DNA of 64,000 nucleotides, taken from NCBI GenBank assembly GCA_000092065.1, contig CP000596.1. The stretch is one strand, 5' to 3'. The stretch is from Ostreococcus lucimarinus. Lineage: Eukaryota. The notes under the pieces are model-generated. The model saw only the letters and a program-made list of their open reading frames with translations, searched no databases and was not told the DNA's origin. Numbering within the stretch: position 1 is the first letter of the stretch; the number at the start of each line of letters is the position of its first letter. The translations under genes were made by a program, and so were the position numbers. Positions 5,766 to 61,924 of the stretch are shown here, in pieces.

Positions 5766-5950
5766 CGAGCGAGGACGCGTTTTTTTCCAGCCTTGTTCAG
5801 CGCCTCGATATCGCTCGGCGTCAACGGCGGCGCGCGACCGCGCGGTGGTACTGGCCGCCGCCGCGTCGCGTTCGCCGCCTCGCGATCGTTTTCGCTCGCG
5901 CGCTTCCGCGGGCTCGCCCTCGTCATCGCGCGCGTCGCGCCGTGGCGCGC

Positions 5951-5988
5951 GTCGTCTCGTCGCGTCTCGTCTCGTCTCGTCTCGTCTC
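5951..5988. repeat. (GTCTC)n microsatellite, about 5-6 units
   Basis: gtcgtctcgtcgcgtctcgtctcgtctcgtctcgtctcgg, seen directly. Lies in the 5' region of gene 5103..5765. Confidence 0.7.
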
Positions 5989-6124
5989 GGACCCGAACCG
6001 CCGATTGGACAATCGGACAATCGGGTATGGTCATCAGTGAGACGTTTTTTAATAAAAATGTCCGAAAAGTGGGTGTGGCGATCAGTGAGGAGGTATAAAT
6101 GACAAAGTTACGATTGATAGGGTT

Positions 6125-6131
6125 AAAAAAA
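6125..6131 (-). terminator. Pol III terminator (T7 run) downstream of tRNA-Gly
   Basis: aaaaaaa on the plus strand equals TTTTTTT on the gene strand, 8 nt past the tRNA 3' end. Confidence 0.6.
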
Positions 6132-6138
6132 GATAATG

Positions 6139-6415
6139 TGCAACCACCGGGAATCGAACCCGGGTCTGGTTATTAGGAGAAAATCGACGTTAACTATGGG
6201 TCAGTTTCCATTTTCCATTTATATCCTTTCGAGCTGTTTATCGAGCTTTTCGGACGGAACACTCACCTCCTGCGCGCTGCTATTTTGTATGCAGTGACGG
6301 CTGTTCGCCGTCAGGAGACCATCTCGCCCGAGCTCGACCTCGGGCGACGACTGGATCATACGCTGCTGAAAGTGCCGATTGGCAGGCAGGTATTCTACCA
6401 CTAGACCATGGTTGC
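6139..6415 (-). tRNA. tRNA-Gly(GCC) interrupted by two intervening sequences. Exons: 6415..6380 (acceptor, D-arm, anticodon loop), 6274..6267 (CGCAGGAG) and 6165..6139 (variable loop remainder, T-arm, acceptor plus discriminator A).
   Basis: RC 5' part GCAACCATGGTCTAGTGGTAGAATACCTGCCTGCCA. Middle part GCAGGAG. 3' part ACCCGGGTTCGATTCCCGGTGGTTGCA. The spliced 71-72 nt product folds as a cloverleaf nearly identical to vertebrate tRNA-Gly-GCC. A and B boxes are present. A T7 terminator lies 8 nt downstream. Confidence 0.5.
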
Positions 6416-6600
6416 CTAGGTCTTCCGCACGCTTGACTACGTGCTTCGGATGTTAGGAACAGCGATAAACTTCAAGTCGGAGAATGCGAACGTCAATGCG
6501 ATCGCGGTGTTACGGGTTGGTGGTAATTACGAAATCATTGATTTCGTAGTAATAATAGCAAAATTCTGGACTAACTATTGTGATTCATCTCTTCATCGGC

Positions 6601-6624
6601 CTAAATACACAGAAAACAAAACGA
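6601..6624 (+). repeat. 24-nt motif ctaaatacacagaaaacaaaacga. Copy 1 of 2; copy 2 is at 9306..9329.
   Basis: Exact 24/24 identity between two intergenic sites, in the same orientation. Confidence 0.5.
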
Positions 6625-6683
6625 ACCGGGTGCGCTCGGTGAAGTCGGACCGCCGATTGGTTGGTTGGTTGGTTGGCCGCGCG

Positions 6684-7130: not shown

Positions 7131-7190
7131 ATGATTCATTCATTCATACATACATTCATTCATACATTCATACATTCATAACGAACAAAA
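7131..7190. repeat. (CATT/CATA)n microsatellite in convergent 3' UTR space
   Basis: attcattcattcatacatacattcattcatacattcatacattcata, seen directly. Related GAATGA runs occur at 1683-1717, 9350-9400 and 12226-12240. Confidence 0.7.
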
Positions 7191-7276
7191 CGCACAAAAT
7201 TGTTGTTATAACAAGGACAACGTGATTAGATAAATTAATTATGTAGGACATCAACGTTCAACGTTCTTTAACTCTG

Positions 7277-9190
7277 TCACGCCGCCGTCGGCGTCGACGA
7301 CGTCGACGCCGCGGTGAGCGCGGCTTCGACTTGCTCGCGAAGTTCTGCTGCCTCTTCGGCGCTGCGACCGTACTTAACCTTCATCTGCCAGGTGATGGCT
7401 TTGCCGCACCGCTCGACGCTCTCGCCCTGATCCCAGAGCTGCATCGCTCGGGCGACTGCTTTCTTTTGCGCCTCGAAGAGCTCCGGATCCGTCGGATTGG
7501 CGTCGGCCTCGACCTGCGCTTCAGTGTAACGAGTGCAAATGTCGTGACTGTACGCGGCGACGGTGGACGAAATACCTGTTGGATCGAACAGCGCCGCGAC
7601 TTCGGCGGCGGCTCTGATGCCGTCAGCCTCCGTCTCGACGGACATCATGTCCTCGATGCCCCCGGCGATGCCGTCGGCCGTGCTGACGACCTGATCGATG
7701 TTGTCGTAGGCGTCCTTCAGCTCTTCCGCAGTTTTCTTAACCGCTTTCGCGGTGTCACCGATCTTGTCAGCGGCTTTGGCGCATTTCGTCGCGGTTTTGA
7801 CTCCGATCTTAGCCCCCGTCGTCGCGCCAGAGCTCGCACCGAGCGTGGCGAAGAAGGCAACCATCTCGAGCGGGCCCATGATCTGGTCGGTAACGACCAG
7901 CGCGCACGTGGCGTCGTCGGCGGCGGCACCCATGCCGCATTCGACCCATCGATTAGCGTTCACTGTAGGAGGTTCGCCCCAGCAGACGAACGCCGCGCCG
8001 ACGAATCCCTCTTTGCAAGGCTCGTAGCAGAGGCCGGCGTCGTACTCGTAGCCGGGGGGACAGGTCGCCGGCTCCATGCCTGGGGAGAGGTGAGTGTGTT
8101 TCGTGCAGCTCGGGGCGATGCCGCCCTCGTAACCTTGATCCTGGCAGTCCATCGTGCAAATATTTGATCCAAAGTTGCTGTATCCGCTCCTGCACTTGTC
8201 GTAGCACAGACCGAGGTAGTCCTCCTTGCCTTTTTTAGTGCAAAGATCTCCGCCACACCGCACACTGAACGTGGACCAGCTCCATTCGCACTCGATGGTA
8301 CCGACGCCGCGACCGTAACTCGCGTCGGGGTTGGAACATAACAATCCGTGGTCGTCCCAACCGCTCGAGCACGACTGATGACAGTCGTAGCCAAAGCGAT
8401 AATAACCAGCGCCGAAGTTTGAGCACTTGTCGTAGCAATACAAACCACCGGCGATGATTTCTTTTTTGCCATCGTCGCCGCAGTACTGCGGAATGATGCC
8501 GTCGCGCGTGTACGATTCGCGCCAGCAAAATCCCGAGCCTTCGTCGACTTCTTGGGCGTACTCGCCGATGATCTCGCTCGACCAACTAGTGACGGTGCCC
8601 GCGTGTTCGACCACGTTTCCTACCCAGCCGAAATTGAGTCCGAGCGCGGCCGTGTCGTTCGACGCTTTACGGCGTTTGTCGATTTTCTTACGCTTTCGCG
8701 CCGTCTCCTTCTCCCGGTCGCGCGCCTCCGCGACGCGCCTCTCGAGCGCCGCCTGAACCATCGATTCCTTCGACGCGCACGTGCCATTCGTCGCGACGGC
8801 CCTCTCCGCCGCGGTGAGATCGGACAACTCAAAGGTCGACTTTCGCAGCGCGCGCTCCGCCTCCGCTTCGACGTCCGCAGCCTTCGCCGTCATGACGGCG
8901 ATCGTCTCGTTGAGCATCGCCTCTCGCTGCCTCGCGTTCACGGCGGCGCCCAATCGCGCGCGAGGCGTCGGCGTCGGCGTCGGCGTCGCGTCGACCGCGC
9001 GCGCGACGCGCGGCGTCGTTCGCGTCGTCGGAATCGTCGTCGTCGTCGTCGTCCCGCGTCGACCCGCGAGCGCGACGACCGCGCACGCCGCGACGCCGAG
9101 CGCGACGACCGTCGTCGTCCCGGCGTCGACCGCGCGTCGGTCCCGTCGCGATCGTCGCAACAGCGGATCGCGCTCGCCCGGCTTCGACAT
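7277..9190 (-). CDS. Type II membrane protein. Layout: N-terminal TM, Thr/Pro-rich stalk, coiled coil, then Cys-rich repeats (GLYCYDKC / GLCYDKC / GLCYEPC).
   Basis: Track ORF 7277..9277 starts at GTG. The first ATG is at 9190 (MSKPGERD...). Hydrophobic segment TTTVVALGVAACAVVALAG. Repeated C-Y-[DE]-[KP]-C units. Family not recognised. Confidence 0.6.
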   Translation of the reverse strand: MSKPGERDPLLRRSRRDRRAVDAGTTTVVALGVAACAVVALAGRRGTTTTTTIPTTRTTPRVARAVDATPTPTPTPRARLGAAVNARQREAMLNETIAVMTAKAADVEAEAERALRKSTFELSDLTAAERAVATNGTCASKESMVQAALERRVAEARDREKETARKRKKIDKRRKASNDTAALGLNFGWVGNVVEHAGTVTSWSSEIIGEYAQEVDEGSGFCWRESYTRDGIIPQYCGDDGKKEIIAGGLYCYDKCSNFGAGYYRFGYDCHQSCSSGWDDHGLLCSNPDASYGRGVGTIECEWSWSTFSVRCGGDLCTKKGKEDYLGLCYDKCRSGYSNFGSNICTMDCQDQGYEGGIAPSCTKHTHLSPGMEPATCPPGYEYDAGLCYEPCKEGFVGAAFVCWGEPPTVNANRWVECGMGAAADDATCALVVTDQIMGPLEMVAFFATLGASSGATTGAKIGVKTATKCAKAADKIGDTAKAVKKTAEELKDAYDNIDQVVSTADGIAGGIEDMMSVETEADGIRAAAEVAALFDPTGISSTVAAYSHDICTRYTEAQVEADANPTDPELFEAQKKAVARAMQLWDQGESVERCGKAITWQMKVKYGRSAEEAAELREQVEAALTAASTSSTPTAA

Positions 9191-9397
9191 CGCGACGGAC
9201 GGCGTCGCGGGGTGGCGATCCGCGTCACCAGGCGGTCGGGCGGCCAACGGCCGCAGGCTGGACAAAACGCGCGCCACGTTTGTAAGCTCATGGGTCTAAA
9301 TGGTACTAAATACACAGAAAACAAAACGAGGTTGCACACTCGATGCACTCGATGAATGAAATGAATGAACTAGATGAACGCGAAACGATTCACTCAT

Positions 9398-10327
9398 TCA
9401 TTCGCCCCCGACCGCGTCGAAATCGAAATCTACGCCGACGCGCTCGCACGCTCGTCTGAAGTCGTCCGGCACCGGCGCGACGATCCGGGGCACGCCGGCG
9501 AAATCTTTCGCCGGGAAGCGAAGCGTCCACGCGTGCAGCGCGTGCCTGTCGACGACGTCGGCGTCGAGGCAGCCGTACGCGGCGTCGCCGACGATCGGTA
9601 GACCGATCGCGGCCAAGTGGACGCGAATCTGATGCGTGCGTCCGGTCTTCGGGCGACACCGCACGAGGGCGTGTCGGCGATTTCGAGCCACAATCGTCCA
9701 CTCCGTCGACGCCGGTTTGCCGTCGGCGGAGGACGTCTCGACGAAGAACCTCGCGCCGTCGTCGCGCTTCGCCAACGCGAGATCTATCGTCCCGGACGAC
9801 GCTCCGCCTCCCGAAACATCAAATTCATCGCACCGACACAGCGCCAAGTACGTCTTCTCGACCTCGCGACGCTCGAACGCGCCTTGCGCGCGCGCCGCCG
9901 CCTTTGCGTTTTTGCACACCACGAGCGCGCCCGACGTCTCTAAATCCAATCTATGCGCCACGTACGGCACCAAACTCGCCCCGAGCACGACGTTCGACGC
10001 CAACGCGCCGTCGTGCGCGTCGACGAGTCGTCGCCGCCACCGCGCGACGACGAGCGACGCCGCGCTCGAATCCGCCACGCGCGACTCGGGCGTCGACGCC
10101 GTTCCCGCGCGTTTATTCACGCACGTCATCTCCTCGTCCTCGTGCAGTATCTCCAGCGCCTCCACGTCCTCCGTCTCGCACGCCAATCCCATCGGCGTCG
10201 CCTCGACCTCGCGTCGTATCGTTCGCGCGACGCTTTCGGCGTCGACGCGACCGACGCGTCTCGCCACCTCGCTCGCGCGCGTCGTCGCCCCCCGCGCGCC
10301 TCGCGCCCACCCGAACCGCCACGCCAT
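9398..10327 (-). CDS. RluA-family pseudouridine synthase
   Basis: Motifs HRLDLETSGALVVCKNAKAA and GRTHQIRVHLAAIGLPIVGDAAYG. The 5' part of the track ORF is antisense to the neighbouring gene. The ATG at 10327 was chosen; the exact start is uncertain. Confidence 0.65.
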   Translation of the reverse strand: MAWRFGWARGARGATTRASEVARRVGRVDAESVARTIRREVEATPMGLACETEDVEALEILHEDEEMTCVNKRAGTASTPESRVADSSAASLVVARWRRRLVDAHDGALASNVVLGASLVPYVAHRLDLETSGALVVCKNAKAAARAQGAFERREVEKTYLALCRCDEFDVSGGGASSGTIDLALAKRDDGARFFVETSSADGKPASTEWTIVARNRRHALVRCRPKTGRTHQIRVHLAAIGLPIVGDAAYGCLDADVVDRHALHAWTLRFPAKDFAGVPRIVAPVPDDFRRACERVGVDFDFDAVGGE

Positions 10328-37021: not shown

Positions 37022-37197
37022 CGCCGACGACCGCGCGTCGGCGGGTGTCACGCGCCGACGTCTCCGGCGCGCGCCCCCCCCTCTCCGGTCGGCGAAACCC
37101 GTAACAAAAGCGTTTCGACCGCGACCGGGGCGGGGGGGGTAAATTTACGCATCAACGAGTATCTATTCAAGGGTGTGAAACGCCCATGTATGTATAA

Positions 37198-37354
37198 GCT
37201 CGGTTAGCTCAGTTGGTTAGAGCGTGGTGCTAATACATTATACGTAGCATTCGATTCGAGCGCGATTCAGTTCGCGCTTCAGACACGTGGACGTTTGTAT
37301 TCAGTCTGATGAAGAGAAACGCCAAGGTCATCGGTTCGACCCCGGTACTGAGCA
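37198..37354 (+). tRNA. tRNA-Ile(AAU) with an 83-nt intron (37236..37318) at the canonical 37/38 position
   Basis: Exons GCTCGGTTAGCTCAGTTGGTTAGAGCGTGGTGCTAATA and ACGCCAAGGTCATCGGTTCGACCCCGGTACTGAGCA match the eukaryotic tRNA-Ile-AAT. A T6 run follows at 37381. Confidence 0.85.
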
Positions 37355-37386: not shown

Positions 37387-37701
37387 GCCTATCAATTTTT
37401 ATCACTTTTTTTATTTCATCTCACTGTATTCATAACCAATTGTCCGTTTCGAGCAGCACTTTTCGCGTTGTCGCGACGCTCGACGTGCGTTCGTCGGGAC
37501 CGACGAATGACTCCGGTCGGACTATTCATATCGCAATCGAATATCGTTGGCGTAGTAACTTTGTGCTCGCTCTTACAAAGGTGGTGTGGCTAAGAATGTC
37601 GGTGGCGGTGGTGGCGACGACACCGCGCGCCGACTTCGGGACAAACGACCGCGGTCGTCAATCGTTTTATCACTCCGCCGTTCAACGAAACGAACGGACG
37701 A

Positions 37702-45604: not shown

Positions 45605-48600
45605 ATGAGCGCGCGCACGCCCGGGAATCCGCTGTGGGATAAACTCAGGCGTCACGTCAACGCGCCCGGGTCGGCGGAATCGTACAGGTCGCGACAAACG
45701 AGCGGACGAAGCGAACGATTTCGCGACGATTACATCGAAGAGGAAGATTATCGACGCTCGGCGTCGTACGCGCGCGGACGAGACGACCAAAGGACGTACG
45801 ATCGATCGTATTCCTCGCCACGGTCGCGTGGACGGTCGCCGTTGCACGATGATCGAGACGAACGACGATCGGGACGACGGGACGAGTTCGATCGGCGCGC
45901 GCGGTCGCCGCTGGGCGAACGGGACGAGCGGTACGAGCGTGAACGCCGGCGAGGGTACGACGAGCGAGACGAAGATAGGACGGCGATGAGAGCGACGCCC
46001 GAGCGACAGAGGTCGTTTGCGAATCGAGGGGAGGAACGACCGGTGTTGGGTGGCGGAGCGACGGGGAGCGCGGCGGCGCGCGAGGAGCCGTTCGACGCGG
46101 CGTATTATAAGACGAGAATCGCGAGGTTGGAGGAGAAACTCGCGAAGGAGCATCAAAAGGTGAAGTCGACGGTCAAGTATTACGAGGATCAGTTCGAAGC
46201 TCAGGCGAAGAAGCTGAGCGAAAAACACGAAGAGGAGAAAAAGGCGGCGGAGGAGGAGGCGACAAAACTGAAATCGCAGGTGGAGTGGCTGAAGCAGGCG
46301 CAAGAGTCGTTGAAGAGCGAACGCGCGGCGCGCGAGGACTTGGAAAAGGAACTCGCGGCGCTTCAAGAAGAGTATGCTGGGAAGGAAAAGATCGCCACCG
46401 ACGTGAAGACGACAGATGCAAAATTGAAGAAGGAGATCAAGGAGCTCAAGGAGGCGGTTGAAATGGCCAAGCGAGAAGCCGCTGAGGCTGAAGAGAGGAC
46501 GAAGAGCGCGCCGCCAAAGCAACCCGAAGCTGACCCTGCAGAAATTGCCATCTTACAAAAGCAATTGGATGAAGAAAAGGCGCAACGCGACACCATCGAG
46601 AAGAAGTTTGCCGCATTGAAGGCGGAATCCATGGATCCATCTGAAGTCGGTTTGCTGCAAAAGAAAGTGTACACCGCGGAGTCCGAACTCGCGACCGTTC
46701 GTGGAGAACTTGATCGCGCGATGGAGGATAAGCAAGAAGCCACTGTGATTAAGGCGAGGTTGGACGTCGCTGAGAAGCTGGTGTATGAGCTCAAGACAAA
46801 GGCGCAACGCGTCGACGAACTCGAACGCTTTTACGCCGACGCTTCGAAGGACAAAGAGCATTTGCGCCAGGCGTACGACAAGATTCAAGAAATCACGGAC
46901 AAGTTGCTCGCGGTGACGAACGAAAAGGAGGTCCTCGTTCGCCACAGCGCGCAGCAAGCGCACGTTGAGGCTCAACTTGAGCAGACGCGAAGTGAACTCA
47001 ATCGAATCAAAAATGAAGTGCACACGGCGCAGGTGGATAAATCAAACAGCGAGATGAACTTCAAGTACGTCGTTGACGATATTTCCCGCACCCTTCGCGA
47101 ACATGCCATGACGTCGATGCGCTGGGAAGCCCGCATGGCGAGTGAGATAAGTGAAGCAAGCGAGGAACACGCGGAGATTCGCCGTCAAACGATGAATCTC
47201 GTATCCACCGCCGAGTCCGAAGCCCAACGAGTAATGCGAGACTCCATCACCGTCGTCAACGATGCTCGACGCATGTTACAGGATAATCACAAAAAGTCCG
47301 AAGATATCATTGAGGACGTCATTCGCGCTGAGCGTCATCGTATGTCGGACGAAACAAAGACGATGAAGAGCCAGCTTGTAGAGGCTGAACGTAGAGCGCT
47401 ACAGGCAAATGCGCAGATTGATGACTTATCTGAGCAACTGCGCCAAATGCGCATCGATTTGCATCTAGCAAAGGATGCACACGCGGCTTTAACAGCGACG
47501 AGATCAGAAGCGCCTTCTATCGTGGACACGGCGAGAGATTTCGGGAGCGACGGCGTGGCTTCGCCGAGTGGCGAAAAGGTTGATTCGCTTCGACAAAAGT
47601 TGCGCACAGCTCAGTTCCAGCTGCTCGCATTGAAAGCTCGACGTAAGTTTGAGATCGACCCGGATCGTGAGGAACTCGAGGAGAAACTACAGTTCATGCG
47701 TGAAGAGCGCGAGCAGCTTCTGGCGAATCGCCCTGCCGCCGCGTTTGAAGAAACCGCCGAAGTATTGGGGCTTCAAGACGAACTTCAATGGTGCCGTTCC
47801 AAGATTGCAAAGCTCGAGGGAGATCGACGAGAACAAAGCCGTGGCTCGTCAGAACGAGAAAAAAGTCTCGAGGATCAGCTCGAGCGCACTCGGTCGGAGC
47901 TGGAAGAGGTTGAGAAGACGATGAGGCAGCTCAAGAAGCAGCAGCTCGACGCATTTGAAGACGTCGCGGAAGACATGGAATCACATTTGCGAATCAAGCT
48001 GACTGAAATGCGCGAAGAGCTCATGCTCGCGAATGCACAACGTGAGAAGTCACGTAATGAGATGAATCACGCGCAAGATGAGCTGATCGTGCTTCGAAGC
48101 GAGCGCGATAACGCCATCACAAGTGTGAAGACAATGCGCGAAGAGCTCGCCGAGTTGCGCCAGACAATCTCAGAAATGTCAGCGTCAAGAGCGGAAATCA
48201 TGACGGCGGGTCGGGAAGAAGTTCGTGCGCGAGAGGACGAATTAAACGCCGTGCGCAGAGAGTTGAGTAATATTCGCGGTCAGAAAGAAAGTGCCTTACT
48301 TACTATGGAGGAGTTGAAGTCGCGACTGCTCGATACTGAGGCGCGGCTCAGTGAGGCGTCCGAGCAGCGTCAGCAATTGGAGCTCGCGCGTAACGACGAA
48401 ACGAGATCGTCGTCTGAGCGAAATAGATTAGAAAACAAGGTGCTGGTATTACAGACAGAGCGCGATGAGATGCAAACGAAGCTTGAGCAGGTGATCATCT
48501 CGCGAGAGGAATTGGAAGAGGAACTCAAAGTGTTGCTCACAAAGTTGAACCAGTCCGAGGAACAAACAACGGCAACGGTGGCGCAGAGCCGCTCTGAGGT

Positions 48601-50104
48601 ATTTATGGCGAACCAAACCATTTCATCACTTCGTGCACAGCTTGACGAGGTTGAATCGGAGTTCGCCTCGGCGAGCAAGTCGTTCGAGCGCGTTCGCGTC
48701 GACAGGGATGTCGCCACTAAGGCGCTTGAGGAAGTTCGCGAAGACCTCGGTCAATGCGAAGTCGAGCTTAAGCTATCTCAGAGGGAGACCGAAATCAAAG
48801 AACGCGAACGTCAAGAGGCGATCGCGATGATGCAACGGGCGCAAGATGCTCTTCAAGAGACGCGACAGGAGCTCGAAAAGACTGAAGCTGAGCTCGTGAA
48901 TTTGGTGGAAGTTGTCGAGCAAGGCGAAGAGACGTTACAACGCACCAAGGTCCAAGTCACGCAAAAGACTCACGATTTATCTACGGCGGAAGCACGATTG
49001 AGTGATTTGATACGCCAAGCGGATGCATATGAAGCCGAGAGGGACGTCGCAAATGAATTGTTGAGTGAGTCTCGCGGCAAACTCTCTGAACTTCAAGCGC
49101 TATCGCAGATCCGCGAAAACGACCTTCTCAACTTGCGAGTGCAACGCGATAAACTCGCTGAAAAGTATGACGAAACGGTGAACGAGTTGAAGCTGACTGA
49201 GGCGTACTTGCAAAAAGCGAGCGTGGCGGTTGAGAAACATCGCGCGGAGCGAGACGGTTTGAGCCAAGCGCTCGAAGCGGCCAACGACACGTTGAGCGCG
49301 ACAGAAAGCCAGCTTCAAACAGTTTCAGCGCAACTCGCGGAACTATACGAAGAAGTGGAAGAGTATAGAACGCAAGGAGGTAGCGAAGACGAAGAGCTGA
49401 TCGAAACTCAAAAAGCTTTGGACGCCGTCATTGACAAGTTCAAGATTTTGCGGGACGCGCACGAAGAGGCTTTGGGTAACTTGGAAGCTGAAATCGCCGC
49501 GCGACAACGCGAGCAACGCGAGCACAAGCAAGCTATTGAAGCTGCAAGAGTCGAATACGAAGAACACGTGCGAATATTGAAGCGTGCGGTGAATGCGAAT
49601 TCGGATCAAGGTGCACTCGCGAGCGAGCTCTTTGCCATCTTGAAAGATTTCCAGCAAGCTCGCGCAGACGCCGAGGTCGCCGGAGATGAAAGTGAGAAGA
49701 GAACCGCGGCGCAGTACTCAAGACAGATGGTCACATCCCCTAATGAGGCCGCGTTTGAGTCTTTGATGCGAATCAAGACGACTCTCGACGACCTCAAGCA
49801 ACGACTGCAAAGCGCCGCCGTCCGCTCGGGCGACGGAGCCGACGTCGAAACCGAAGCCCTTCGAACCAACCTCCGACTTCGCGTCTTGGTATTCGAAACC
49901 TTTATCGATCTTGTCTCCCAGCGTTCTCGCGTCGGCGCTTACAAAGGCCAAGTCGAGGTCGACGCTCGCGACCGCGCCGCCGAAGAAGACGTTCGATACG
50001 AGGGCGTCCCGAAACCCGCCCTCGTGCGCAAGCGCAGCATCGCCGGTTTCGCCCCGAACATCAACTTTGGCATCAAGCTCTTCGGCAACAACGATCGCGA
50101 TTGA
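45605..50104 (+). CDS. Large coiled-coil protein (1499 aa) with an N-terminal RS/RD/RE-rich region
   Basis: Single uninterrupted ORF with ATG at 45605. Heptad-rich E/K/L/A/R composition throughout. Confidence 0.75.
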   Translation: MSARTPGNPLWDKLRRHVNAPGSAESYRSRQTSGRSERFRDDYIEEEDYRRSASYARGRDDQRTYDRSYSSPRSRGRSPLHDDRDERRSGRRDEFDRRARSPLGERDERYERERRRGYDERDEDRTAMRATPERQRSFANRGEERPVLGGGATGSAAAREEPFDAAYYKTRIARLEEKLAKEHQKVKSTVKYYEDQFEAQAKKLSEKHEEEKKAAEEEATKLKSQVEWLKQAQESLKSERAAREDLEKELAALQEEYAGKEKIATDVKTTDAKLKKEIKELKEAVEMAKREAAEAEERTKSAPPKQPEADPAEIAILQKQLDEEKAQRDTIEKKFAALKAESMDPSEVGLLQKKVYTAESELATVRGELDRAMEDKQEATVIKARLDVAEKLVYELKTKAQRVDELERFYADASKDKEHLRQAYDKIQEITDKLLAVTNEKEVLVRHSAQQAHVEAQLEQTRSELNRIKNEVHTAQVDKSNSEMNFKYVVDDISRTLREHAMTSMRWEARMASEISEASEEHAEIRRQTMNLVSTAESEAQRVMRDSITVVNDARRMLQDNHKKSEDIIEDVIRAERHRMSDETKTMKSQLVEAERRALQANAQIDDLSEQLRQMRIDLHLAKDAHAALTATRSEAPSIVDTARDFGSDGVASPSGEKVDSLRQKLRTAQFQLLALKARRKFEIDPDREELEEKLQFMREEREQLLANRPAAAFEETAEVLGLQDELQWCRSKIAKLEGDRREQSRGSSEREKSLEDQLERTRSELEEVEKTMRQLKKQQLDAFEDVAEDMESHLRIKLTEMREELMLANAQREKSRNEMNHAQDELIVLRSERDNAITSVKTMREELAELRQTISEMSASRAEIMTAGREEVRAREDELNAVRRELSNIRGQKESALLTMEELKSRLLDTEARLSEASEQRQQLELARNDETRSSSERNRLENKVLVLQTERDEMQTKLEQVIISREELEEELKVLLTKLNQSEEQTTATVAQSRSEVFMANQTISSLRAQLDEVESEFASASKSFERVRVDRDVATKALEEVREDLGQCEVELKLSQRETEIKERERQEAIAMMQRAQDALQETRQELEKTEAELVNLVEVVEQGEETLQRTKVQVTQKTHDLSTAEARLSDLIRQADAYEAERDVANELLSESRGKLSELQALSQIRENDLLNLRVQRDKLAEKYDETVNELKLTEAYLQKASVAVEKHRAERDGLSQALEAANDTLSATESQLQTVSAQLAELYEEVEEYRTQGGSEDEELIETQKALDAVIDKFKILRDAHEEALGNLEAEIAARQREQREHKQAIEAARVEYEEHVRILKRAVNANSDQGALASELFAILKDFQQARADAEVAGDESEKRTAAQYSRQMVTSPNEAAFESLMRIKTTLDDLKQRLQSAAVRSGDGADVETEALRTNLRLRVLVFETFIDLVSQRSRVGAYKGQVEVDARDRAAEEDVRYEGVPKPALVRKRSIAGFAPNINFGIKLFGNNDRD

Positions 50105-50340
50105 TTCGGCCTGTAATTCATTTCACTTCAAGCGCACGCGCCGTCGTCCGAGTCGAGTTCGCGTCTCGCCGCCTCGCCTGAAATAAATTCTCGAATGAAT
50201 CCAGCCGCCGCCGCCACGAAAAGTGACATTTTCGCGCACCGCACTTTTCCGCGCGCCGCACACGCGTCGACGCGCTCGACGACGCGCGAAAGCGATACAC
50301 AACTCCCCGAACACGCCTCTCACCGCACGCTCGACGCGCG

Positions 50341-51108
50341 ATGCCGAAGAGCAAGCGCGCCAAGGTGGTGTCCCTGACGCAAACCAAGAAGAAGGACCGC
50401 GAGTGGAAGTCAACGCTCATCGAACGCGTGCGCGACGCGCTGAGCGAAAGATCGTCCGTGTACGTGTTTAAATACGAAAACATGCGGAACGGAACGTTCA
50501 AAGAGATGCGGGCGGCGACGGAGGCGACGACGACGTTCTTCGTGGGGTCGAATAAAGTACTGCGAGTGGCGCTGGGGCGAGACGCGGAGAGCGAGGCGAG
50601 CGAGGGCGCGGCGACGCTTGGAGCGCGCGTGAAGGGCGATTGCGGCGTGATGTTTACTAATTTATCCCGAGAAGACGTTGAGAGCGTGTTTGAAAGGTTT
50701 GCGGTGAAGGATTACGCGAGAACCGGGGCGTTGGCTAGAGAGACGGTGACGGTGGAGGCGGGACCGGTGCACGGTCCGAGCGGGGCGCTCATGGAACACA
50801 CACTCGAGCCGACGCTGCGCAAGAATGGGATGCCGACGAAACTGAATCGTGGAGTGATTGAGTTGGAGGCCAATCACACGCTTTGTAAGGAAGGACAACA
50901 CATCTCTCCGCAAGGGGCGATTTTGTTGCGATTGTTTGGGCACGAGTTGGCCGAATTCAGGTGTCGTCTGACGTGTGGCTTGGTGAACGGCGAGCTCGAG
51001 GTGTACGAGGAAGATGATGAAGGCGACGACGGCGATGATGGACCCATCGACCGATTTGCGCACGACGGCATCACGGATTCCATGATGCTTCCTCCGGGAG
51101 TCAAGTAG
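50341..51108 (+). CDS. MRT4: mRNA turnover protein 4 (MRT4; ribosomal uL10/P0-like assembly factor)
   Basis: MPKSKRAKVVSLTQTKKK...SVYVFKYENMRN matches the conserved MRT4 N-terminus. Confidence 0.85.
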   Translation: MPKSKRAKVVSLTQTKKKDREWKSTLIERVRDALSERSSVYVFKYENMRNGTFKEMRAATEATTTFFVGSNKVLRVALGRDAESEASEGAATLGARVKGDCGVMFTNLSREDVESVFERFAVKDYARTGALARETVTVEAGPVHGPSGALMEHTLEPTLRKNGMPTKLNRGVIELEANHTLCKEGQHISPQGAILLRLFGHELAEFRCRLTCGLVNGELEVYEEDDEGDDGDDGPIDRFAHDGITDSMMLPPGVK

Positions 51109-51168
51109 ACTGACGCGTACCTTCGTAATAAACACAACGTAGTTCAAATCGACAAACGACGTTCATCT

Positions 51169-52146
51169 CTACAAGGCATCACTGCCGCTATCGCTATAGT
51201 ACTTTTCAACAACCTCACGCACAAACCAGTCCAGCGAGAGTTGCATGTGTCTCGCGGCCGGCACGAGTCGCGCCTCCAGTCGACCGTCGGCGTCGAGCGC
51301 CGCCAAGCCAAGACTCTCGTACACGACGTCGTTCCTATCGTACGGGATTATTTCCGATCTGTTACTTCCGCCGACCACTCGCGATCCAAACCACGAACTT
51401 TCTTTCGGGAACACCATGTCATCGAATTCGAACATGAACATTACGAATCGCTCCAACGACGTCAACGCCTCGCGCCGAGACGCTCCGTCTCTCTCGTTCG
51501 CGGTCCCCTCGTTGTTCACCCACGGCAAGAACGCGTTCGTCTCCAAATAGCGCTGGTATTTTGCGTTCGTGGACGTATCCCGAAAGTACTGCGCCTGCAC
51601 GATGCGTCGCCGCGCGAAATCGCTCGCCGATAACGCGCTCGCCATCGCGTTCATCGCTCGACACGCGCGCGAAATCGTCGCCCAATCCCCTCCGCATCCC
51701 GGCAACGCATCCACGCCCAAATGCTGCGCCCCAAACGTCACCAACGTCGTAAACTTTACCCCGTCGCACGTCTCCACGAGCGCTCTCGCGAACTGCCCTC
51801 CCTGCGAGAACCCGAGCGCGTGCGTTCGCGTCGTCCCGCTCGCTCGCCGCGTCTCGTCCCCGACCACCGCCTCGCACACCGCGCTCACCTGCGCCGCGAC
51901 GTCGCCGACGTACGAGCTGTATCGATCCCCACCGCCACCATCGATTCGCACGCTTCGCGCGCACGCGCTCGGGCGTCGCGCGAGCGCCAGCGCGAGTTCG
52001 TCCAAGCCTTCGCCCGTGTCTCCCATCCCGTGCCAGAGGTAAAACCAATCGCGCGTCGTCTCGTCGCACGCGCCGCGCGAGACGAAGCTCGCGCGCGGCG
52101 TCGTCGACGCGAGCGCGCCGAGCGCGAGCGCGCCGAGCGCGCGCAT
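51169..52146 (-). CDS. Palmitoyl-protein thioesterase (PPT1-like) with a signal peptide
   Basis: WHGMGD and GFSQGGQFARA. A signal-like MRALGALALGALAS follows ATG 52146. An upstream ATG at 52266 is also in frame. Confidence 0.75.
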   Translation of the reverse strand: MRALGALALGALASTTPRASFVSRGACDETTRDWFYLWHGMGDTGEGLDELALALARRPSACARSVRIDGGGGDRYSSYVGDVAAQVSAVCEAVVGDETRRASGTTRTHALGFSQGGQFARALVETCDGVKFTTLVTFGAQHLGVDALPGCGGDWATISRACRAMNAMASALSASDFARRRIVQAQYFRDTSTNAKYQRYLETNAFLPWVNNEGTANERDGASRREALTSLERFVMFMFEFDDMVFPKESSWFGSRVVGGSNRSEIIPYDRNDVVYESLGLAALDADGRLEARLVPAARHMQLSLDWFVREVVEKYYSDSGSDAL

Positions 52147-52264
52147 GGACGCGCGCGCGGCGGTTTGTGGCGACGCCGGCGCTGCATCTAACCGTCCGGG
52201 ACGTGCGGCGACACAGCGTCGCGCGCGAGCGGAGCGCGCGCGCGCGGAGGGCGTCGAGCGGAGC

Positions 52265-53281
52265 ATGGGGTGCGCGTCGTCGCGCGACGACGTCGCGCGA
52301 GGCGAAAGCGACGGAGGGACGACGCGGCGGGGTCAAGATGATGACGATGATGTCGTCCTAGAAATCGTCCCGACGACGACGACGGCGAACGAAGACGACG
52401 CGAGCGAGCGAGAGGGCGGTGACGATCGCGCGATGGTGGCGGCGCGGCGCGCATCCGCGGATGAGGAGGAGCGGAGAGGACTGGTGGAGGTTGAACTGGG
52501 AGCGACGACGACGACGGCGGACGACGACGAGAAGGAAACGATTTTGCGACGACTGCGGGCGATGGAAAGTCTGGTGCAAGTGTTACCGCGAAAGTGTGAG
52601 GCGTTGGAGATGGAAAACGCGGCGCTGAGAGAGCTGCTGGACGACGCGAGACGGGATGCGAGACGGTTTTGCGGAGAGTGCGAGATTGAAACGGAAGTCG
52701 CGATGGAACGCGCGAGGACGGCGATTTCGGACGCGCGAAGGGTCATGCACGAGCAGCGCGTGCGGTATGAAGATACGATGGCGGAATCTGAACGCGAGGG
52801 GCGGCATCGACTCGCGATGGCGACGTTAAAGTCAAAATCAGAATACGCACGAGCAAAGTTACGCGCGAGCGAAGCCGTCGAGGAATGCGAAAGATATCGA
52901 GCAGAGATTGAGAGATTGAGGGACGAGTTGGAACGATTGAGAGACGAGCGTGTGAGAGATGCAGCACTTCCATCGACGACGAATCGAGAGGATGATTTGT
53001 CGACTGTGTCTGATTTTGGTCGCGATAGCGTCGTCCATCAGATGCGCTGGCGACTTTGGGCGTCAGAACTCACTCGAAATGACGAGCGAAGCTTGGTGCG
53101 CGACGCGGAGGATAGCTTAGAAATGTTTGCTCATTTGCAGGTGCAGCTGGATGAACTAAAGCGCGAGAAGCGAAGTGCGACATCCGCTTTGGAGGAGATG
53201 AATTCGCTGTTGATTGAATCTCGAGACGAGGTTTACGATTTGAAGCACGCGCTGAAGCTCGACCTAGAAGAGGACCTGTGA
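52265..53281 (+). CDS. N-myristoylation-consensus (MGCASS) coiled-coil protein
   Basis: ATG at 52265, reading MGCASSRDD. Acidic and coiled-coil composition. No recognised domain. Confidence 0.55.
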   Translation: MGCASSRDDVARGESDGGTTRRGQDDDDDVVLEIVPTTTTANEDDASEREGGDDRAMVAARRASADEEERRGLVEVELGATTTTADDDEKETILRRLRAMESLVQVLPRKCEALEMENAALRELLDDARRDARRFCGECEIETEVAMERARTAISDARRVMHEQRVRYEDTMAESEREGRHRLAMATLKSKSEYARAKLRASEAVEECERYRAEIERLRDELERLRDERVRDAALPSTTNREDDLSTVSDFGRDSVVHQMRWRLWASELTRNDERSLVRDAEDSLEMFAHLQVQLDELKREKRSATSALEEMNSLLIESRDEVYDLKHALKLDLEEDL

Positions 53282-53339
53282 ACTAAGGACTAAGGATCGC
53301 AAGATACACTAATTGTAATGTACGGATTACACGCACCAA

Positions 53340-56300
53340 TCACCGCGGCGGTTGTCGACTCACCTTGACTGGGCTGAATGGTTCGCTGAATCGCCGGTCG
53401 CTATAGTACGTGCTCTTAGTTTGCTCCAATAGAGAAACAGAAGCCGACGTCGCTCGAGCAAACGTGGCGCGCAAGGCTTCATCGCGCGCGAGAAGGTCAA
53501 ATTGGTCTTGCAAGCTTTCTCGAACCGTCGACAGGGCTTCGACCTCAGCTTCCATGGTTTGAACGTCGCTCATCACGGCACGATATTGCTTTTCGTACGA
53601 ATCTGGTTCGACGACCGTCGGCATCGTTCGAGGCGATGCTGTCGGAGTTGAATATCGAGAGCCATACGCGAATTCCTTCGACGCCACCCGATTGCGTCCG
53701 AGAAGACGAATATTTTCTTCGTAAGACTTGTCAAAATCCCAACCTGTCGAAATCGTCGGGCGTTCATATTTGGTGAGCGAATACGTCTCCTGCGCGCCGC
53801 TGGGTGATCGAGCGTTCATTTTCCATTCGCTAAAAATCTTGCGAACGACTCGTTTCTGCCTATGCTCGGTTTTCAATCGATGGTACTTCATCACTTCCGT
53901 GAACTGTCGCCACGAGCGCAAAAACTTTCGTCGAGCTCTGTCTGCAAGAATATCGTGCATCTTCTTCACCGTGCGATTTCTGTGCTCAGAAATTCTTTGC
54001 GAGTACCGCACCCAGGCCATGAACATTGGGTTTCTGTAGATGCGCTCGTTACGAGCGAGCCCCCAGCGCATGGCTACGTTGACTCGGACCATGTCTGAAA
54101 CCGAGGAATGAGTCACGTGCAGTGGCGCTATGGCGCGCTCGACATTTTGCAGTCGCCGTTCGACGACACGGAAGGAACGTATTTGCTTCATGTATCCCGA
54201 CCAACTATTAAACGCTTTGACGAGAGCCCGACGGCGCATGCGTTGCAGGCTGGTAGAAACGAGCTCTTTTTGTCTGCGTATCATCAGCACGTGCGTGGAC
54301 CAACCATCAAAGGCCTGCGCCAGCGTTTTATTGCGCGCGCGGTGCAAAGACTTTGAAACGAGCGTCCTGTGACGCTTTTGTTCGATCATCTTGTAGTTCC
54401 ACGCGTTGAAAGCTCGAGAAAGCGTTCGATTCAGCACTTTTGTCAAAGACATCTTCACTGCGCGTTCGATGCGACGTTCGTACGCACGAGACGCGCGAGC
54501 TTCGTCCACGCTTTCAATCCAAGAGTAAAACGCCCTGACTGTGATTCTGTACCTCATTTTCCTCAAACTGTTCGCGACGAGTAGTCGATTTCGCTTCTTT
54601 TTGTGCACGGCGTCTAACCAACCGTCAAAGGCATACGCTAAGTGACGCTGCTTCACTCGAAGAATCACCATGTGAGCGGCGTCCATGACGCGTCGTCGTT
54701 CATCGATGAAAAATACCCAGCGGTTGAACGCACGGGCTACCGCGCGCATTCGCGCTCGCGCCAGCACACCGCGTGCTTTGCTTTCATTTACTTTCATTTG
54801 CTTGATTTCCTGTACATGATCGCGCCACTGCATGAATGCGTAACCGAGAGATTGCCGCTTCACGCTTCCTAAGATTTGCGCCAACTTGTTCGATCGAAGT
54901 TGCTCTTGTTTCATGTCAGCCATCCTACGCATTTTCGCCTCCTGCGTGGCGTGAACCCACGTTTTAAACGTTCCTCGCAAAGATCTGTCTCTAAATCTCT
55001 CGTAGAACCTGCCGATGATTGCTTGATAACGTTTCTTTGTTTGAACGTGGTCGAGCCAAGTATTGAAAGCTGTGAAAATGACTCGTTGCGTGAGACGTGT
55101 GAGAGCCCGATCCATCTTCCATCGATCGATTCGCTGCTCGCTCGCTCGTTGCTTCCACTGCTCAAACGCACCTGCCAAGAGTCTGTTCCTGATCCTTGAC
55201 ACGACTCTCTCGATCACTTGTCGTTGATGTCGCAGCGCCGCGGCGGTGCTCGACCAGTCGTAAAACGCCACGTGCAAACGTCTTCCTCTGAATCGAGAAA
55301 CGGCGCGGTTAAGCAACGCGCGTTGGGTCTTCTTTTCGCCGACGCGCGCAACCCATCCTGAAAACGCGTAATACAGCTTGCACTGCGACATCTTTTGAAT
55401 CGCTTTCTGGAAAATGACTCGATGCACCTTGGCTTCGTCGACACGTTCTGCCCAGGTATCAAACGCCATACGAAGATTGTTTCGTTGCATCTTTTGCGTC
55501 ACACGAACGAGCGTTCTTCGCTGCTGCGCAAATATTTTTGCCGACGCTCTCCATCGTGCGAAAGCTTTAGCTTGCGCCTGCTTGCGTATGGAAGTGATAG
55601 CCTTTGCCACCACCCGCCGCTGACGCCGCGTGTGGACAGCGTAGTCTTTCCACTGCAAAAACGTTCTCTTCAGTCGTTCTTTCGCGGCATTCTTCGCTTG
55701 AAGGTTGACGATATTTTCAATATTTTTCAAATGAATTTTTGCCGCGATCGAATCCGCGGTGACTTCGCGCCAAGCGTTGAAAGCGCATGAGATGAGACGA
55801 TTCGATGCGCGCATCAAAACGGTTCGCATGAGCTCACGTTGACGCTTCCTGTCCTCAACCACTTGCACCCACGTGTTGAATGCAGTGAACTGGAGTCTAG
55901 ACGTCATACGATTCAGTGCGAGAGTCAATTTCAATCGTTGATCTCGCTGGCTCATGGCATACTTGTACCAATACACGAAAGCTGCTCTCGCCTTGCGAGT
56001 CGCATGAATCTTGCAGAAAATGTCCAAACGCTGCTCCAAGAGTTCGTTCGCCAACTGCTCCGTCACGCGCACGTTGCGCGATTCTTGGGCGATAGAAAGC
56101 CATCCCCAGAAGCACATTGATAGTGCCGCTGTCGAGGAATTTATTCGCATTTTTTCAGCCATTTTGTGAGCTTGCACGCGCACGTACTTTTTGTGCTCCA
56201 CGACTTCGCTCCATTGCGCAAATGCCTTGGCGAGACGTCGCTGTTGCCAACGTCTGATTGCTTTTTCCATCGCAACCTTGTACACAGAACTTCGGTGTAG

Positions 56301-57701: not shown

Positions 57702-57937
57702 CGCGTCGAGATCGAGCGTTTCGCGTCCCTCGTCGAATCACGACCGTTCCCCTTCTGCGCCAATCGACACCGCGCGCGGTCGCGATGCGCGCTCGAGGGC
57801 GACGCGCGCGCGTTCGGCAGCGTCTACTCGAAGTTTTCTACGCGTGCGCGGTCGCGTGGCATGTCGAACGCGCGCGTTCGTGTGCGGGCGCGCGATCGAG
57901 TCGCGACGACGGCGATGCTTCGGGACAGCTCTAGAGG

Positions 57938-59344
57938 CTAAAATTTCAAGTCAAAGGCGCGGAGCGCGGCGGCGAAGTGCGGGGGAGGCTCGGCGACGAC
58001 GCGCGTCGAAACGCCCGATTCGGGATGAACGAATTGTAACGCGCGAGCGTGGAGGTGGAGAGGGATCTTGGAGACGCCGCGGAGGGATGCGCGACGAAGC
58101 TTGCGCCAGAAGTCGGATTCTTTTTCGGATTCGACATCGGCAGATTCGATGTCAGTGAAACGACTCTTCCACGGCGCTCGCCGATCGTTGAAGCCGTACT
58201 TGTAATCGCCGATGATTGGGGACGATAGGGCTTTGGCCAAGTGCACGCGAAGTTGGTGCTTGCGACCAGTGATCGGAGTAAGTTCTAGGAGCGTCGGCCC
58301 GTCCTCGCCGGCGCTGGCGAGCACCTTGAAGTGCGTCATCGCCGCCTTGGACGCGGGTGAGCCCGCGTCGTTGGATTTGTCTCTCATGGATTCTCCCGTG
58401 CCGACGACGACGCCGCCGCCTTTCGCATCGTACACTCGCCAGCCGCCGACGAGACGCGCCGTGGAGTAGCCGTCGCCGTCGCCCACCTCGGTGAGAGGCG
58501 CCTCGATCCATCCCGAGCGCGCGCCTCTCGGCGGCGGATTCGACGTCAGCGCCCAGTACGTCTTCACCACCGGATCGTTCGACAGCGAAGGCGCGTCTCC
58601 GCGCTCCATGTCCGCCCGCATTATCTCCGTAAAATCCATCCTCGATTTTTTGGCAAACATCGCGTTGAGCCTGTTCGCCGCAAACGCGGTCCGCGCCAGC
58701 ACCAACACCCCCGACGTGTCTCGATCTAATCTGTGCACGACGTACTCCGAATCCAACGCGTGTCTCAAATCGTACACCGACACGTCCACGCCGTTCCCTC
58801 GCGTCGTCGCCAGTCCCGGCGGTTTATCGACCACCGTCACGTGTTCGTCCGCGTGCAGAACGCGCGCTCGAATCGCCTCCACCAACGCCTCGCTCGCCCC
58901 GTCGCGATCCCTCGCGCGCCTCGTCGCGTCGCCGTCACCATTCGCGTCTTCATCGCCGTACTCTCGCCACGTCCATCCCTCGCGCGCGATCGGCACCGCG
59001 AGAAACTCGCCCGGCGCCAGCGTCCGCGCCCGTCCCGCGCGCCGCAGCGACCGCGCGTCGCGCTCGACGCCCTCCCCGAGCGCCCCGCGCCCGACTCGGA
59101 CGACGCGCGCGCGAAACAGCTGATGCACCGCGCTCCCGCCGCGCGCGCCGCGTCCTCGCGCGTCGCCCGCGCCGTCGTGGCGGAGGTACTTTCGCAGCCA
59201 GCGCAGCGCGGTGACGGCGTCGTCGCCGACGCGCCAGCGCGGCACGGGCGGCGTGACGACGCGGTGCGTCGCGTACGCCGCGCGCGCCGTCGCGCCCGCG
59301 CGCGCGAGCCGCCGCAGCGCCGCGAAGACGCGCGCCGTCGCCAT
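57938..59344 (-). CDS. RluA-family pseudouridine synthase, second paralog, probably organellar
   Basis: HRLDRDTSGVLVLART and GRKHQLRVHLA. ATG at 59344. Confidence 0.8.
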   Translation of the reverse strand: MATARVFAALRRLARAGATARAAYATHRVVTPPVPRWRVGDDAVTALRWLRKYLRHDGAGDARGRGARGGSAVHQLFRARVVRVGRGALGEGVERDARSLRRAGRARTLAPGEFLAVPIAREGWTWREYGDEDANGDGDATRRARDRDGASEALVEAIRARVLHADEHVTVVDKPPGLATTRGNGVDVSVYDLRHALDSEYVVHRLDRDTSGVLVLARTAFAANRLNAMFAKKSRMDFTEIMRADMERGDAPSLSNDPVVKTYWALTSNPPPRGARSGWIEAPLTEVGDGDGYSTARLVGGWRVYDAKGGGVVVGTGESMRDKSNDAGSPASKAAMTHFKVLASAGEDGPTLLELTPITGRKHQLRVHLAKALSSPIIGDYKYGFNDRRAPWKSRFTDIESADVESEKESDFWRKLRRASLRGVSKIPLHLHARALQFVHPESGVSTRVVAEPPPHFAAALRAFDLKF

Positions 59345-61819: not shown

Positions 61820-61924
61820 CTGTCGTCAACGTCGTCATCGCCCTTCGTCAGTCCTCGCGCGCGATTCCGCGCGCGACGCGCGCGTCGACGCACCGCTCGA
61901 TCGTGTCCGAGTCGCCACGGCTCG

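Follow-up and report, generated by a model that had tools for sequence, protein, structure and literature searches.

Introns of tRNA genes are conventionally separated into those removed by an endonuclease and a ligase and those that self-splice in organelles, and both are set apart from spliceosomal introns, which belong to transcripts of RNA polymerase II (Pol II). Reviews of disrupted tRNA genes recognize only the canonical, ectopic bulge-helix-bulge (BHB), split and permuted classes (PMC3978253, PMC4033280, PMC4390854), and a review from 2026 on the tRNA genes of photosynthetic organisms describes for Ostreococcus tauri only canonical introns and permuted genes, with the spliceosome unmentioned. 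Spliceosomal introns in small structured RNA genes are known from the U6 small nuclear RNA (snRNA) genes of Schizosaccharomyces pombe and other fungi (Tani & Ohshima 1989, 1991), from U1, U2 and U5 genes and from ascomycete rDNA (PMC5855946). In a search of the full-text literature, no tRNA gene was reported to carry spliceosomal introns, although an earlier mention in Maruyama et al. 2010 is possible. Here, we describe a tRNA-Gly(GCC) gene on the minus strand (6139..6415) of a 64-kb stretch of contig CP000596.1 from Ostreococcus lucimarinus (hereafter, the window), which is interrupted by an intron at the canonical position 37/38 (intron B; intron 1 of an earlier note on this DNA) and by a GT-AG intron at position 45/46 (intron C; intron 2 of that note). 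We consider it likely that this is a live and probably single-copy tRNA gene that would need both the spliceosome and the tRNA endonuclease for its maturation.

The interrupted tRNA-Gly(GCC) gene and its two introns

Joining the minus-strand segments 6415..6380 (36 nt), 6274..6267 (8 nt) and 6165..6139 (27 nt) yields the 71-nt sequence GCAACCATGGTCTAGTGGTAGAATACCTGCCTGCCACGCAGGAGACCCGGGTTCGATTCCCGGTGGTTGCA, which ARAGORN folds as tRNA-Gly(gcc) with stems of 7/4/5/5, of which the acceptor, anticodon and T stems are perfect. The fold has a 7-nt anticodon loop containing GCC, GG in the D loop and TTCGA in the T loop; in its D arm and AGAC variable loop the tRNA presumably resembles land-plant Gly-GCC. 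The earlier note had assembled the same three segments into a tRNA of 71–72 nt with perfect acceptor, anticodon and T stems, and both its coordinates and its stems agree with the fold of the spliced sequence. By contrast, the unspliced DNA of the locus gives no tRNA call with ARAGORN or with Rfam at the gathering threshold. A permissive Rfam scan detects the 3′ fragment alone, consisting of the T arm and acceptor, together with chance matches to Plastid-ycf2, mascRNA and CRISPR-DR9. Minimum free energy folds of the 277-nt and 176-nt precursors retain the acceptor and T arms and are uninformative on the junctions. The gene is composed of the following elements.

6380..6415, minus strand: exon 1, with the acceptor 5′ strand, D arm, anticodon stem 5′ strand and the loop to A37; anticodon GCC
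6275..6379, minus strand: intron B, canonical tRNA intron of 105 nt without GT-AG borders, exactly at 37/38
6267..6274, minus strand: exon 2, with C38, the anticodon stem 3′ strand GCAGG, A44 and G45
6166..6266, minus strand: intron C, spliceosomal-type, 101 nt, in the variable loop between 45 and 46
6261..6266, minus strand: 5′ splice site GTGAGT, preceded by exonic AG (GAG/GTGAGT)
6200..6205, minus strand: putative branch site ACTGAC; its branch A is 6201, which lies 35 nt from the final intron base
6166..6168, minus strand: 3′ splice site CAG after the pyrimidine-rich TTTTCTCCT
6139..6165, minus strand: exon 3, with A46 and C48, the T arm (B box GGTTCGATTCC), the acceptor 3′ strand and the discriminator A
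Minus strand: predicted mature exon 2/exon 3 junction CGCAGGAG/ACCCGGGTTCG, the exon 3 side starting ACCCGGG
Minus strand: predicted junction of the precursor that has lost intron C and retains intron B, AATAGCAGCG/CGCAGGAGACCCGGG

Intron C reads GGAG/GTGAGTGT ... AAACTGACCCA ... TTTTCTCCTAATAACCAG/ACCC at its borders and branch region (its 3′ end can also be given as CCTAATAACCAG). Because AG is repeated at both borders, 3 registers lead to an identical mature RNA, and one of these is GT-AG. In Ostreococcus lucimarinus, introns confirmed by expressed sequence tags (ESTs) have the donor GTGCGTG, carry GACTGACG in 66.5% of cases and have a median length of 111 nt, with ACTGAC found in 87% of the EST-confirmed introns outside chromosome 2 (PMC2483917), and in Micromonas the donor is AG/GTGCGT and the branch site NCTGAC (PMC3879977). 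Judged by these signals, intron C carries a donor, the lineage-specific branch site, a pyrimidine tract and a CAG acceptor like those of the mRNA introns of this alga. The length of 101 nt (6266..6166), the split of the variable loop, the GTGAGT start and the pyrimidine-rich 3′ end had all been pointed out previously and hold, the last consisting of TTTTCTCCT followed by CAG; the CTGAC placed 45 nt from the intron end was misplaced, since it starts 39 nt from the 3′ end, with the branch A at 35 nt.

Both junctions were compared with the structure cut by the tRNA splicing endonuclease. We searched every register of every intron for a BHB-like motif, that is, a 4-bp central helix (H) with 2 flanking 3-nt bulges holding the cut sites and an adjoining exon helix (h), considering gap-free strict or relaxed motifs beside the junctions. 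For intron B, H is 4/4: CTGC (nt 32–35) pairs with GCAG at intron positions −6..−3, and the helix stacks directly on the 5-bp anticodon stem (h = 5). In keeping with this, ARAGORN accepts exon 1, intron B and exons 2–3 as a tRNA-Gly with a 105-nt intron, and on this structural ground the intron B junction is of the kind used by the tRNA splicing endonuclease. In intron C, no BHB-like motif occurs in any of the 3 registers (H 0–2/4, h 0–1), and the GT-AG introns of all related loci described below reach at most H = 2/4 and h = 3 in any register. Every non-canonical intron can be read in a GT-AG register, and no canonical intron can. Thus, the BHB check on both junctions that the earlier note had recommended separates the two introns: intron B passes it, and intron C does not in any register. 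This outcome, the agreement of ACTGAC with the mRNA introns of the lineage and the presence of like introns at 3 more positions of the gene in related loci bear out the description of intron C as spliceosomal-looking. Group I or II self-splicing introns were considered as well and rejected, given intron lengths of 97–129 nt and no group I/II ribozyme family at the Rfam gathering score in the window or in 5 related loci.

Intron B contains an 8-bp hairpin, CGCCCGAG/CTCGGGCG, at 6346..6323 on the minus strand, as had been noted before; its length, previously put at about 104 nt, is 105 nt (6379..6275), and its site, previously given as at or next to 37/38, is exactly 37/38. An intron at this position is present in 15/15 loci, never with GT-AG ends, and H is reduced to 3/4 in only 2 of them (L007 and L013). 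Across lineages the 37/38 intron is long (102–161 nt) and keeps several sequence blocks, namely GGCAC..CAGCAG, CTACGGTCACACGTAG and the CTCCTGRCGGCGAA..GYCGT hairpin, the arms of which seem to change in step. These comparisons suggest that the structure of intron B is conserved or that the intron itself serves some function.

Related loci and intron turnover

An exact-match scan of a metagenome collection with exon 3, which would also catch an uninterrupted gene, returned 11 loci; further syntenic loci were reached through homologues of the neighbouring kinase, giving 14 related loci in all besides the window (the contigs compared are labelled L005–L041). Most of these are orthologous, sharing in BLAST comparisons of the flanks the gene order pseudouridine synthase, tRNA, Whirly, kinase (6PF2K) and Sec7. 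Spliced-alignment searches recovered the identical 71-mer from 12 loci (the window and L005–L015), between which the introns and flanks have diverged: coding flanks are only 67–78% identical and the introns are unalignable between lineages. The tRNAs of L024/L025 and L021–L023 differ from that of the window at seven or eight positions. Among these changes, 4 stem pairs are altered on both sides and none is disrupted, and the remaining ones are a D-stem C-to-U substitution mending a mismatch and one T-loop base. Across the three distinct mature sequences, a small sample, 96.8% of stem cells are paired, compared with 33–44% when partners are slid. No intron-free copy with this acceptor stem was found in the scan of the metagenome collection, all 11 exon-3 matches being interrupted genes. 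On this comparative evidence, the exons and structure of tRNA-Gly(GCC) are under purifying selection, and the same mature tRNA in 12 diverged loci, the compensatory stem changes and the lack of an intron-free copy in that scan favour the view, already expressed in the earlier note, that this is a live gene and not a relic.

Beside the canonical intron, the loci differ in the GT-AG introns that they carry, as follows.

No GT-AG intron (37/38 intron only): L007, L010, L013 and L021–L023
45/46 intron, GTGAGT..ACTGAC..CCAG: window, L005, L009, L012 and L016
45/46 intron, unalignable with that of the window, GTACGT..TACTGACG..ACAG: L006, L011, L014 and L015
30/31 intron (within the anticodon stem), CCTG/GTACGT..TTCTGACG..CACAG/C: L008, L009 and L014
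42/43 intron, GCAG/GTTCGT..CACTGACA..ATAG/G: L008
53/54 intron (T stem/T loop), CGAG/GTACGA..AACTGACT..CACAG/TTCG: L024 and L025

In the window-type 45/46 family, the branch region is AACTGACC (AG/GTGAGT..AACTGACC..CCAG). Introns of all 5 families are 97–129 nt long and have the branch A 26–35 nt from the acceptor; the branch motif is ACTGAC in 4 families and TCTGAC in 1, the acceptor is CAG in 4 and TAG in 1, and exonic AG precedes 3 of the 4 insertion sites. The joint chance of GTNNGT, YAG and CTGAC at 22–37 nt is approximately 5e-6 per intron with 4 registers allowed, and the combination was seen in four or five independent intron families.

On one side of the gene, up to the exon 3/intron border, L008 and the window share 98.8% identity over 6.2 kb; on the other side, the identity is 97.6% over 2.7 kb. 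Between these near-identical flanks, L008 has introns at 30/31, 37/38 and 42/43, whereas the window has introns at 37/38 and 45/46. Where L008 7890–8480 is aligned with window 6168–6633, the upstream 200 nt are also more diverged. Judging from these alignments, L008 is a hyper-divergent haplotype limited to approximately 0.5 kb. Furthermore, members of two clades have the 30/31 intron in common at 80–89% identity, and both clades also hold members without that intron. Collectively, these patterns point to rapid turnover at the tRNA-Gly locus, with recurrent precise loss, gain or exchange of introns. No other copies of the individual introns were found in the window and the fetched loci (a few hundred kb) outside the orthologous tRNA genes, save for a segmental duplicate in L014. 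This partial duplicate (L014 3870–4187), 3.3 kb from the main gene, comprises the 45/46 intron, exon 3 and the 3′ flank; its T stem is changed in a compensatory manner (CGGGG/CCCCG), a search for the 5′ half gave nothing, and the stretch preceding its donor is unrelated (..GTGCTCCA/GTACGTG).

The gene was absent from several syntenic positions. No tRNA-Gly was found at the syntenic locus of Micromonas commoda (CP001576.1) or at the syntenic spot of L019 and L037–L039 (76% and 88% relatives); the contigs L020, L040 and L041 end short of the upstream tRNA position. Scans of viral contigs for the splicing intermediate and for exon 1 gave no match.

The surroundings of the locus are themselves variable. 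A 35-nt direct repeat (window 6590–6624 and 9295–9329; 86% identical, including the perfect minus-strand 20-mer GTTTTGTTTTCTGTGTATTT) lies on either side of a cysteine-rich 666-aa open reading frame (ORF), 7277..9277 on the minus strand. The sister lineage L009 lacks window 7174–9400 altogether, so that this ORF is a presence/absence variant adjoining the tRNA gene. Microsatellite-like runs lie around the locus, (GAGAC/GACGA)n downstream and (CCAA)n upstream (window 5940–6000 and 6655–6680, minus strand).

Transcription, maturation and the rest of the window

The following elements outside the gene may bear on its transcription.

6508..6518, minus strand: upstream element AACCCGTAACA, −103..−93 of tRNA-Gly
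6463..6473, minus strand: A/T-rich block GAAGTTTATCG, at approximately −58..−48 of tRNA-Gly, putatively TATA-like in function
6125..6131, minus strand: T7 run, Pol III-type terminator, starting 8 nt past the gene
6113..6121, minus strand, and 37388–37396, plus strand: downstream motif CCTATCAAT

The window contains only two copies of the 11-mer AACCCGTAACA, the other one (37096–37106, plus strand) being located at −102..−92 of a tRNA-Ile gene, and related CC(C/T)(G/A)TAAC(A/T) motifs are found approximately 100–115 nt upstream of the tRNA gene in L006, L007, L021 and L024. A similar A/T block, TAAATTTA, is located at −58..−51 of tRNA-Ile, and AAATTTATCG lies upstream in L024. This tRNA-Ile-AAU (37198..37354, with an 83-nt intron) is the second tRNA gene of the window, as reported earlier; the alternative ARAGORN call as Ser(AGA) stems from ambiguity of the intron register. 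The motif CCTATCAAT is also present twice (0.06 expected), each time right after the T-run of a tRNA gene, and both 3′ flanks share ...CTCACTG. The upstream 11-mer and the A/T blocks resemble an external promoter placed at a fixed distance from the tRNA genes of this alga, of which AACCCGTAACA is probably a part. The T7 terminator 8 nt past the 3′ exon, which the earlier note had pointed out, was located at 6131..6125. A run of at least 4 T lies within 3–34 nt downstream of the gene in 15/15 loci, and a run of at least 5 T lies inside the gene in none of the 15. Together with the upstream motif shared with tRNA-Ile, these T-runs suggest transcription by RNA polymerase III (Pol III). Among the internal elements, which had been described as intact, the B box is indeed perfect, but the A box, read by eye, has 1 mismatch to the textbook consensus; the distance between them is approximately 237 nt in the window and approximately 423 nt in L008.

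The maturation pathway that we favour would begin with transcription from the external promoter (AACCCGTAACA at −100 and the A/T block at −55), most likely by Pol III. With such a promoter, an A-to-B box gap of approximately 237–423 nt would be tolerable; the same lineage tolerates permuted tRNA genes (PMC3978253). Transcription would stop at the downstream T-run. The spliceosome would take out the GT-AG intron or introns first, restoring the anticodon stem, variable loop and T arm, and the tRNA endonuclease and ligase would afterwards excise intron B from the correctly folded body. This order is proposed because the 30/31 intron of L008, L009 and L014 splits the anticodon stem, which is the exon helix of the canonical junction, and lowers h from 5 to 2 bp.

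Several points weigh against such a pathway. The spliceosome generally processes Pol III transcripts inefficiently. The donors of the tRNA introns vary at +3/+4 (GTGAGT, GTACGT, GTTCGT and GTACGA) and none has the GTGCGT consensus, and the one TTTT run inside the window-type intron C could end a fraction of Pol III transcripts, given that in some orthologues the first downstream T-run is just T4. In addition, the 42/43 intron comes from a single metagenomic contig (L008), and the single-copy status, which is probable, was deduced from one metagenome collection and not from a finished genome. On balance, we hold with moderate confidence that this is a nuclear Pol III-type tRNA-Gly(GCC) gene with spliceosome-dependent maturation, in which spliceosomal introns have been repeatedly acquired at four or more positions and are still polymorphic within a species.

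Two alternatives retain the gene as functional and differ in how its transcript would be made or cut. Transcription could be carried out by Pol II, from an snRNA-type upstream promoter or by read-through from the neighbouring minus-strand gene, with RNase P and RNase Z freeing the tRNA from the spliced transcript. Splicing is normally coupled to Pol II, and this alternative would also fit the conserved external element and A/T block found instead of the usual A/B-box spacing, the position of the tRNA gene between two same-strand genes and the TTTT run in the window-type intron, a feature unexpected in a gene read by Pol III; moreover, dicistronic units of ncRNA and tRNA are described for O. 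tauri (bioRxiv 10.64898/2026.07.10.737489). However, the same 11-mer stands at the same distance before the ordinary tRNA-Ile gene, a T-run directly follows the gene in every orthologue with no run of at least 5 T inside any of them, and the tRNA gene and its introns persist in L009, where the upstream neighbour is missing. U6 is also an example of splicing of a Pol III transcript. We regard transcription by Pol II as unlikely, though as a serious alternative for this one step. Far less probable is that all introns, those with GT-AG borders included, are ectopic introns of the archaeal or Cyanidioschyzon type, cut by the endonuclease at a relaxed BHB in an alternative fold. Nuclear tRNA genes with multiple or ectopic introns do exist in red algae (PMC3728597, PMC13578239), and the permuted tRNA genes of the same green-algal lineage are processed at BHB motifs (PMC3978253), but the BHB test fails for each GT-AG intron (H at most 2/4, flanking helices at most 3 bp), with the canonical intron passing as a positive control. 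A BHB would also leave the GT..AG ends, the ACTGAC 26–35 nt from the 3′ end and the exonic AG unexplained in 5 families. This possibility was rejected on the register-by-register test of gap-free motifs beside the junctions.

That the locus is a dead or dying pseudogene broken by insertions, with a functional Gly-GCC gene elsewhere, might seem to account for its being missed by standard tRNA finders, for the mismatch in the A box and for the abnormal A-B spacing. It is contradicted by exons that are 100% identical across lineages with unalignable introns and 67–78% identity of the coding flanks, by compensatory stem changes in distant lineages, by insertions that always have precise, splice-competent borders and by the metagenome scan with exon 3, which gave only interrupted genes at this locus; we give this explanation almost no credence, and exon conservation together with the compensatory changes led us to exclude it. 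A further proposal concerns the source of the extra introns, which could be copies of a mobile family of introner-like elements, explaining their fast gain and loss. Introner elements are abundant in Micromonas and have the same branch motif (PMC3879977), the introns are present or absent between near-identical genomes, and in L014 an intron with exon 3 is duplicated 3.3 kb away. Yet BLAST searches with the introns found copies only in the orthologous tRNA genes (in the few hundred kb of the window and fetched loci), the L014 duplicate is a segmental copy that takes in exon 3 and the flank, and only splice signals are common to the 5 families. We consider an introner origin improbable. Being a statement on origin and not on removal, it is compatible with spliceosomal splicing of the introns, which we continue to prefer.

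The window as a whole has a GC content of 62% and is densely filled with long ORFs. GACTGACG is overrepresented in it, occurring 10 times where 4.5 copies would be expected (a count attained in 0 of 100 shuffles), and several of these sites have YAG 23–30 nt downstream, marking candidate introns. Joining of ORFs was overwhelmed by spurious long ORFs at this GC content, and a filter for GC3 periodicity left one candidate mRNA intron, 61893..61820 on the minus strand (74 nt; GTGCGTC..GGACTGACGA..CAG, with a GACAG end), which links a short ATG exon to a long high-GC3 ORF rich in LF(D/G) acidic repeats. Proteins encoded in the window are plant-like, including a PPR protein, Whirly and 6-phosphofructo-2-kinase, and identical or near-identical in hundreds of marine metagenome assemblies; the closest named relatives of the kinase are from Micromonas commoda (64% identity) and Mantoniella antarctica (58%). 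Between 46000 and 58000, the GC content falls to 52–58%, compared with 62–68% elsewhere, and at 46–50 kb the AT skew reaches 0.24–0.30 (a strong purine skew) over a 1499-aa ORF (45605..50104). Low-GC outlier regions are a known trait of Mamiellophyceae, and window 46000–58000 could be the edge of such a region.

Implications and comparison with known systems

From the sequence comparisons, this may be the first tRNA that requires the spliceosome for its maturation. If so, a tRNA gene with bona fide spliceosomal introns would bridge both textbook intron classes, would be the first to need two splicing systems and would represent natural spliceosomal splicing of a Pol III transcript outside snRNAs, with the spliceosome serving an essential component of translation. 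It would also offer a compact natural substrate for studying how a transcript of Pol III, or of another unconventional kind, reaches the spliceosome and which of the two machineries precedes the other. With several independent insertions in a 71-nt gene, 3 of 4 sites after AG and intron differences between genomes that are 98–99% identical, the locus is a rare live system of intron gain and loss and is suited to studying reverse splicing into abundant RNAs. For annotation, tRNAscan-type tools and Rfam overlook tRNA genes interrupted by GT-AG introns. Annotators of Mamiellophyceae genomes found the tRNA sets to be incomplete and, to make up for this, appealed to sparing rules seen "only exceptionally in Eukarya" (PMC3673656); hidden genes with GT-AG introns could explain part of these incomplete sets and of the unusual wobble and decoding rules, and may be the simpler account.

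Among described systems, the spliceosomal introns of U6 provide a close parallel: the host is a small structured non-coding RNA gene, transcribed by Pol III in the case of U6, and the introns are short, have GT-AG ends and contain a branch site. As in snRNA genes and rDNA, the introns of tRNA-Gly(GCC) are lineage-specific, occupy varied positions and share no sequence beyond the splice sites. An snRNA host is, however, a component of the spliceosome, so that an origin by reverse splicing at the active site comes naturally there, whereas a tRNA has no known contact with the spliceosome, and in the present case an endonuclease-type intron coexists in the same precursor. Ectopic or multiple tRNA introns of Cyanidioschyzon merolae, Chondrus crispus, the Guillardia nucleomorph and Crenarchaeota (PMC3728597, PMC3978253, PMC13578239) are similar in that two or three introns occupy non-canonical sites (D arm, anticodon stem, variable region and T arm) and are missed by standard finders. 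Those introns are defined by a BHB and cut by the endonuclease; here the BHB was searched for and is lacking, and GT-AG borders and an ACTGAC branch site are present instead.

According to two summaries that cover permuted tRNA genes in the same algal class (PMC3978253, PMC3673656), these genes likewise have a broken A/B-box geometry, probably depend on upstream promoters and are missed by annotation. They resolve through a circular intermediate at a BHB junction, unlike the GT-AG splicing predicted here. In their signals, the tRNA introns match the U2-type introns that the spliceosome removes in Mamiellophyceae (Irimia & Roy 2008, PMC2483917; Verhelst et al. 2013, PMC3879977), with a preceding AG, a GTNNGT-type donor, (N/A)CTGAC, YAG and a length of approximately 100–130 nt. 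They differ in that the mRNA introns reside in Pol II protein-coding transcripts and have the donor GTGCGT(G), whereas the tRNA introns start with GTGAGT, GTACGT, GTTCGT or GTACGA.

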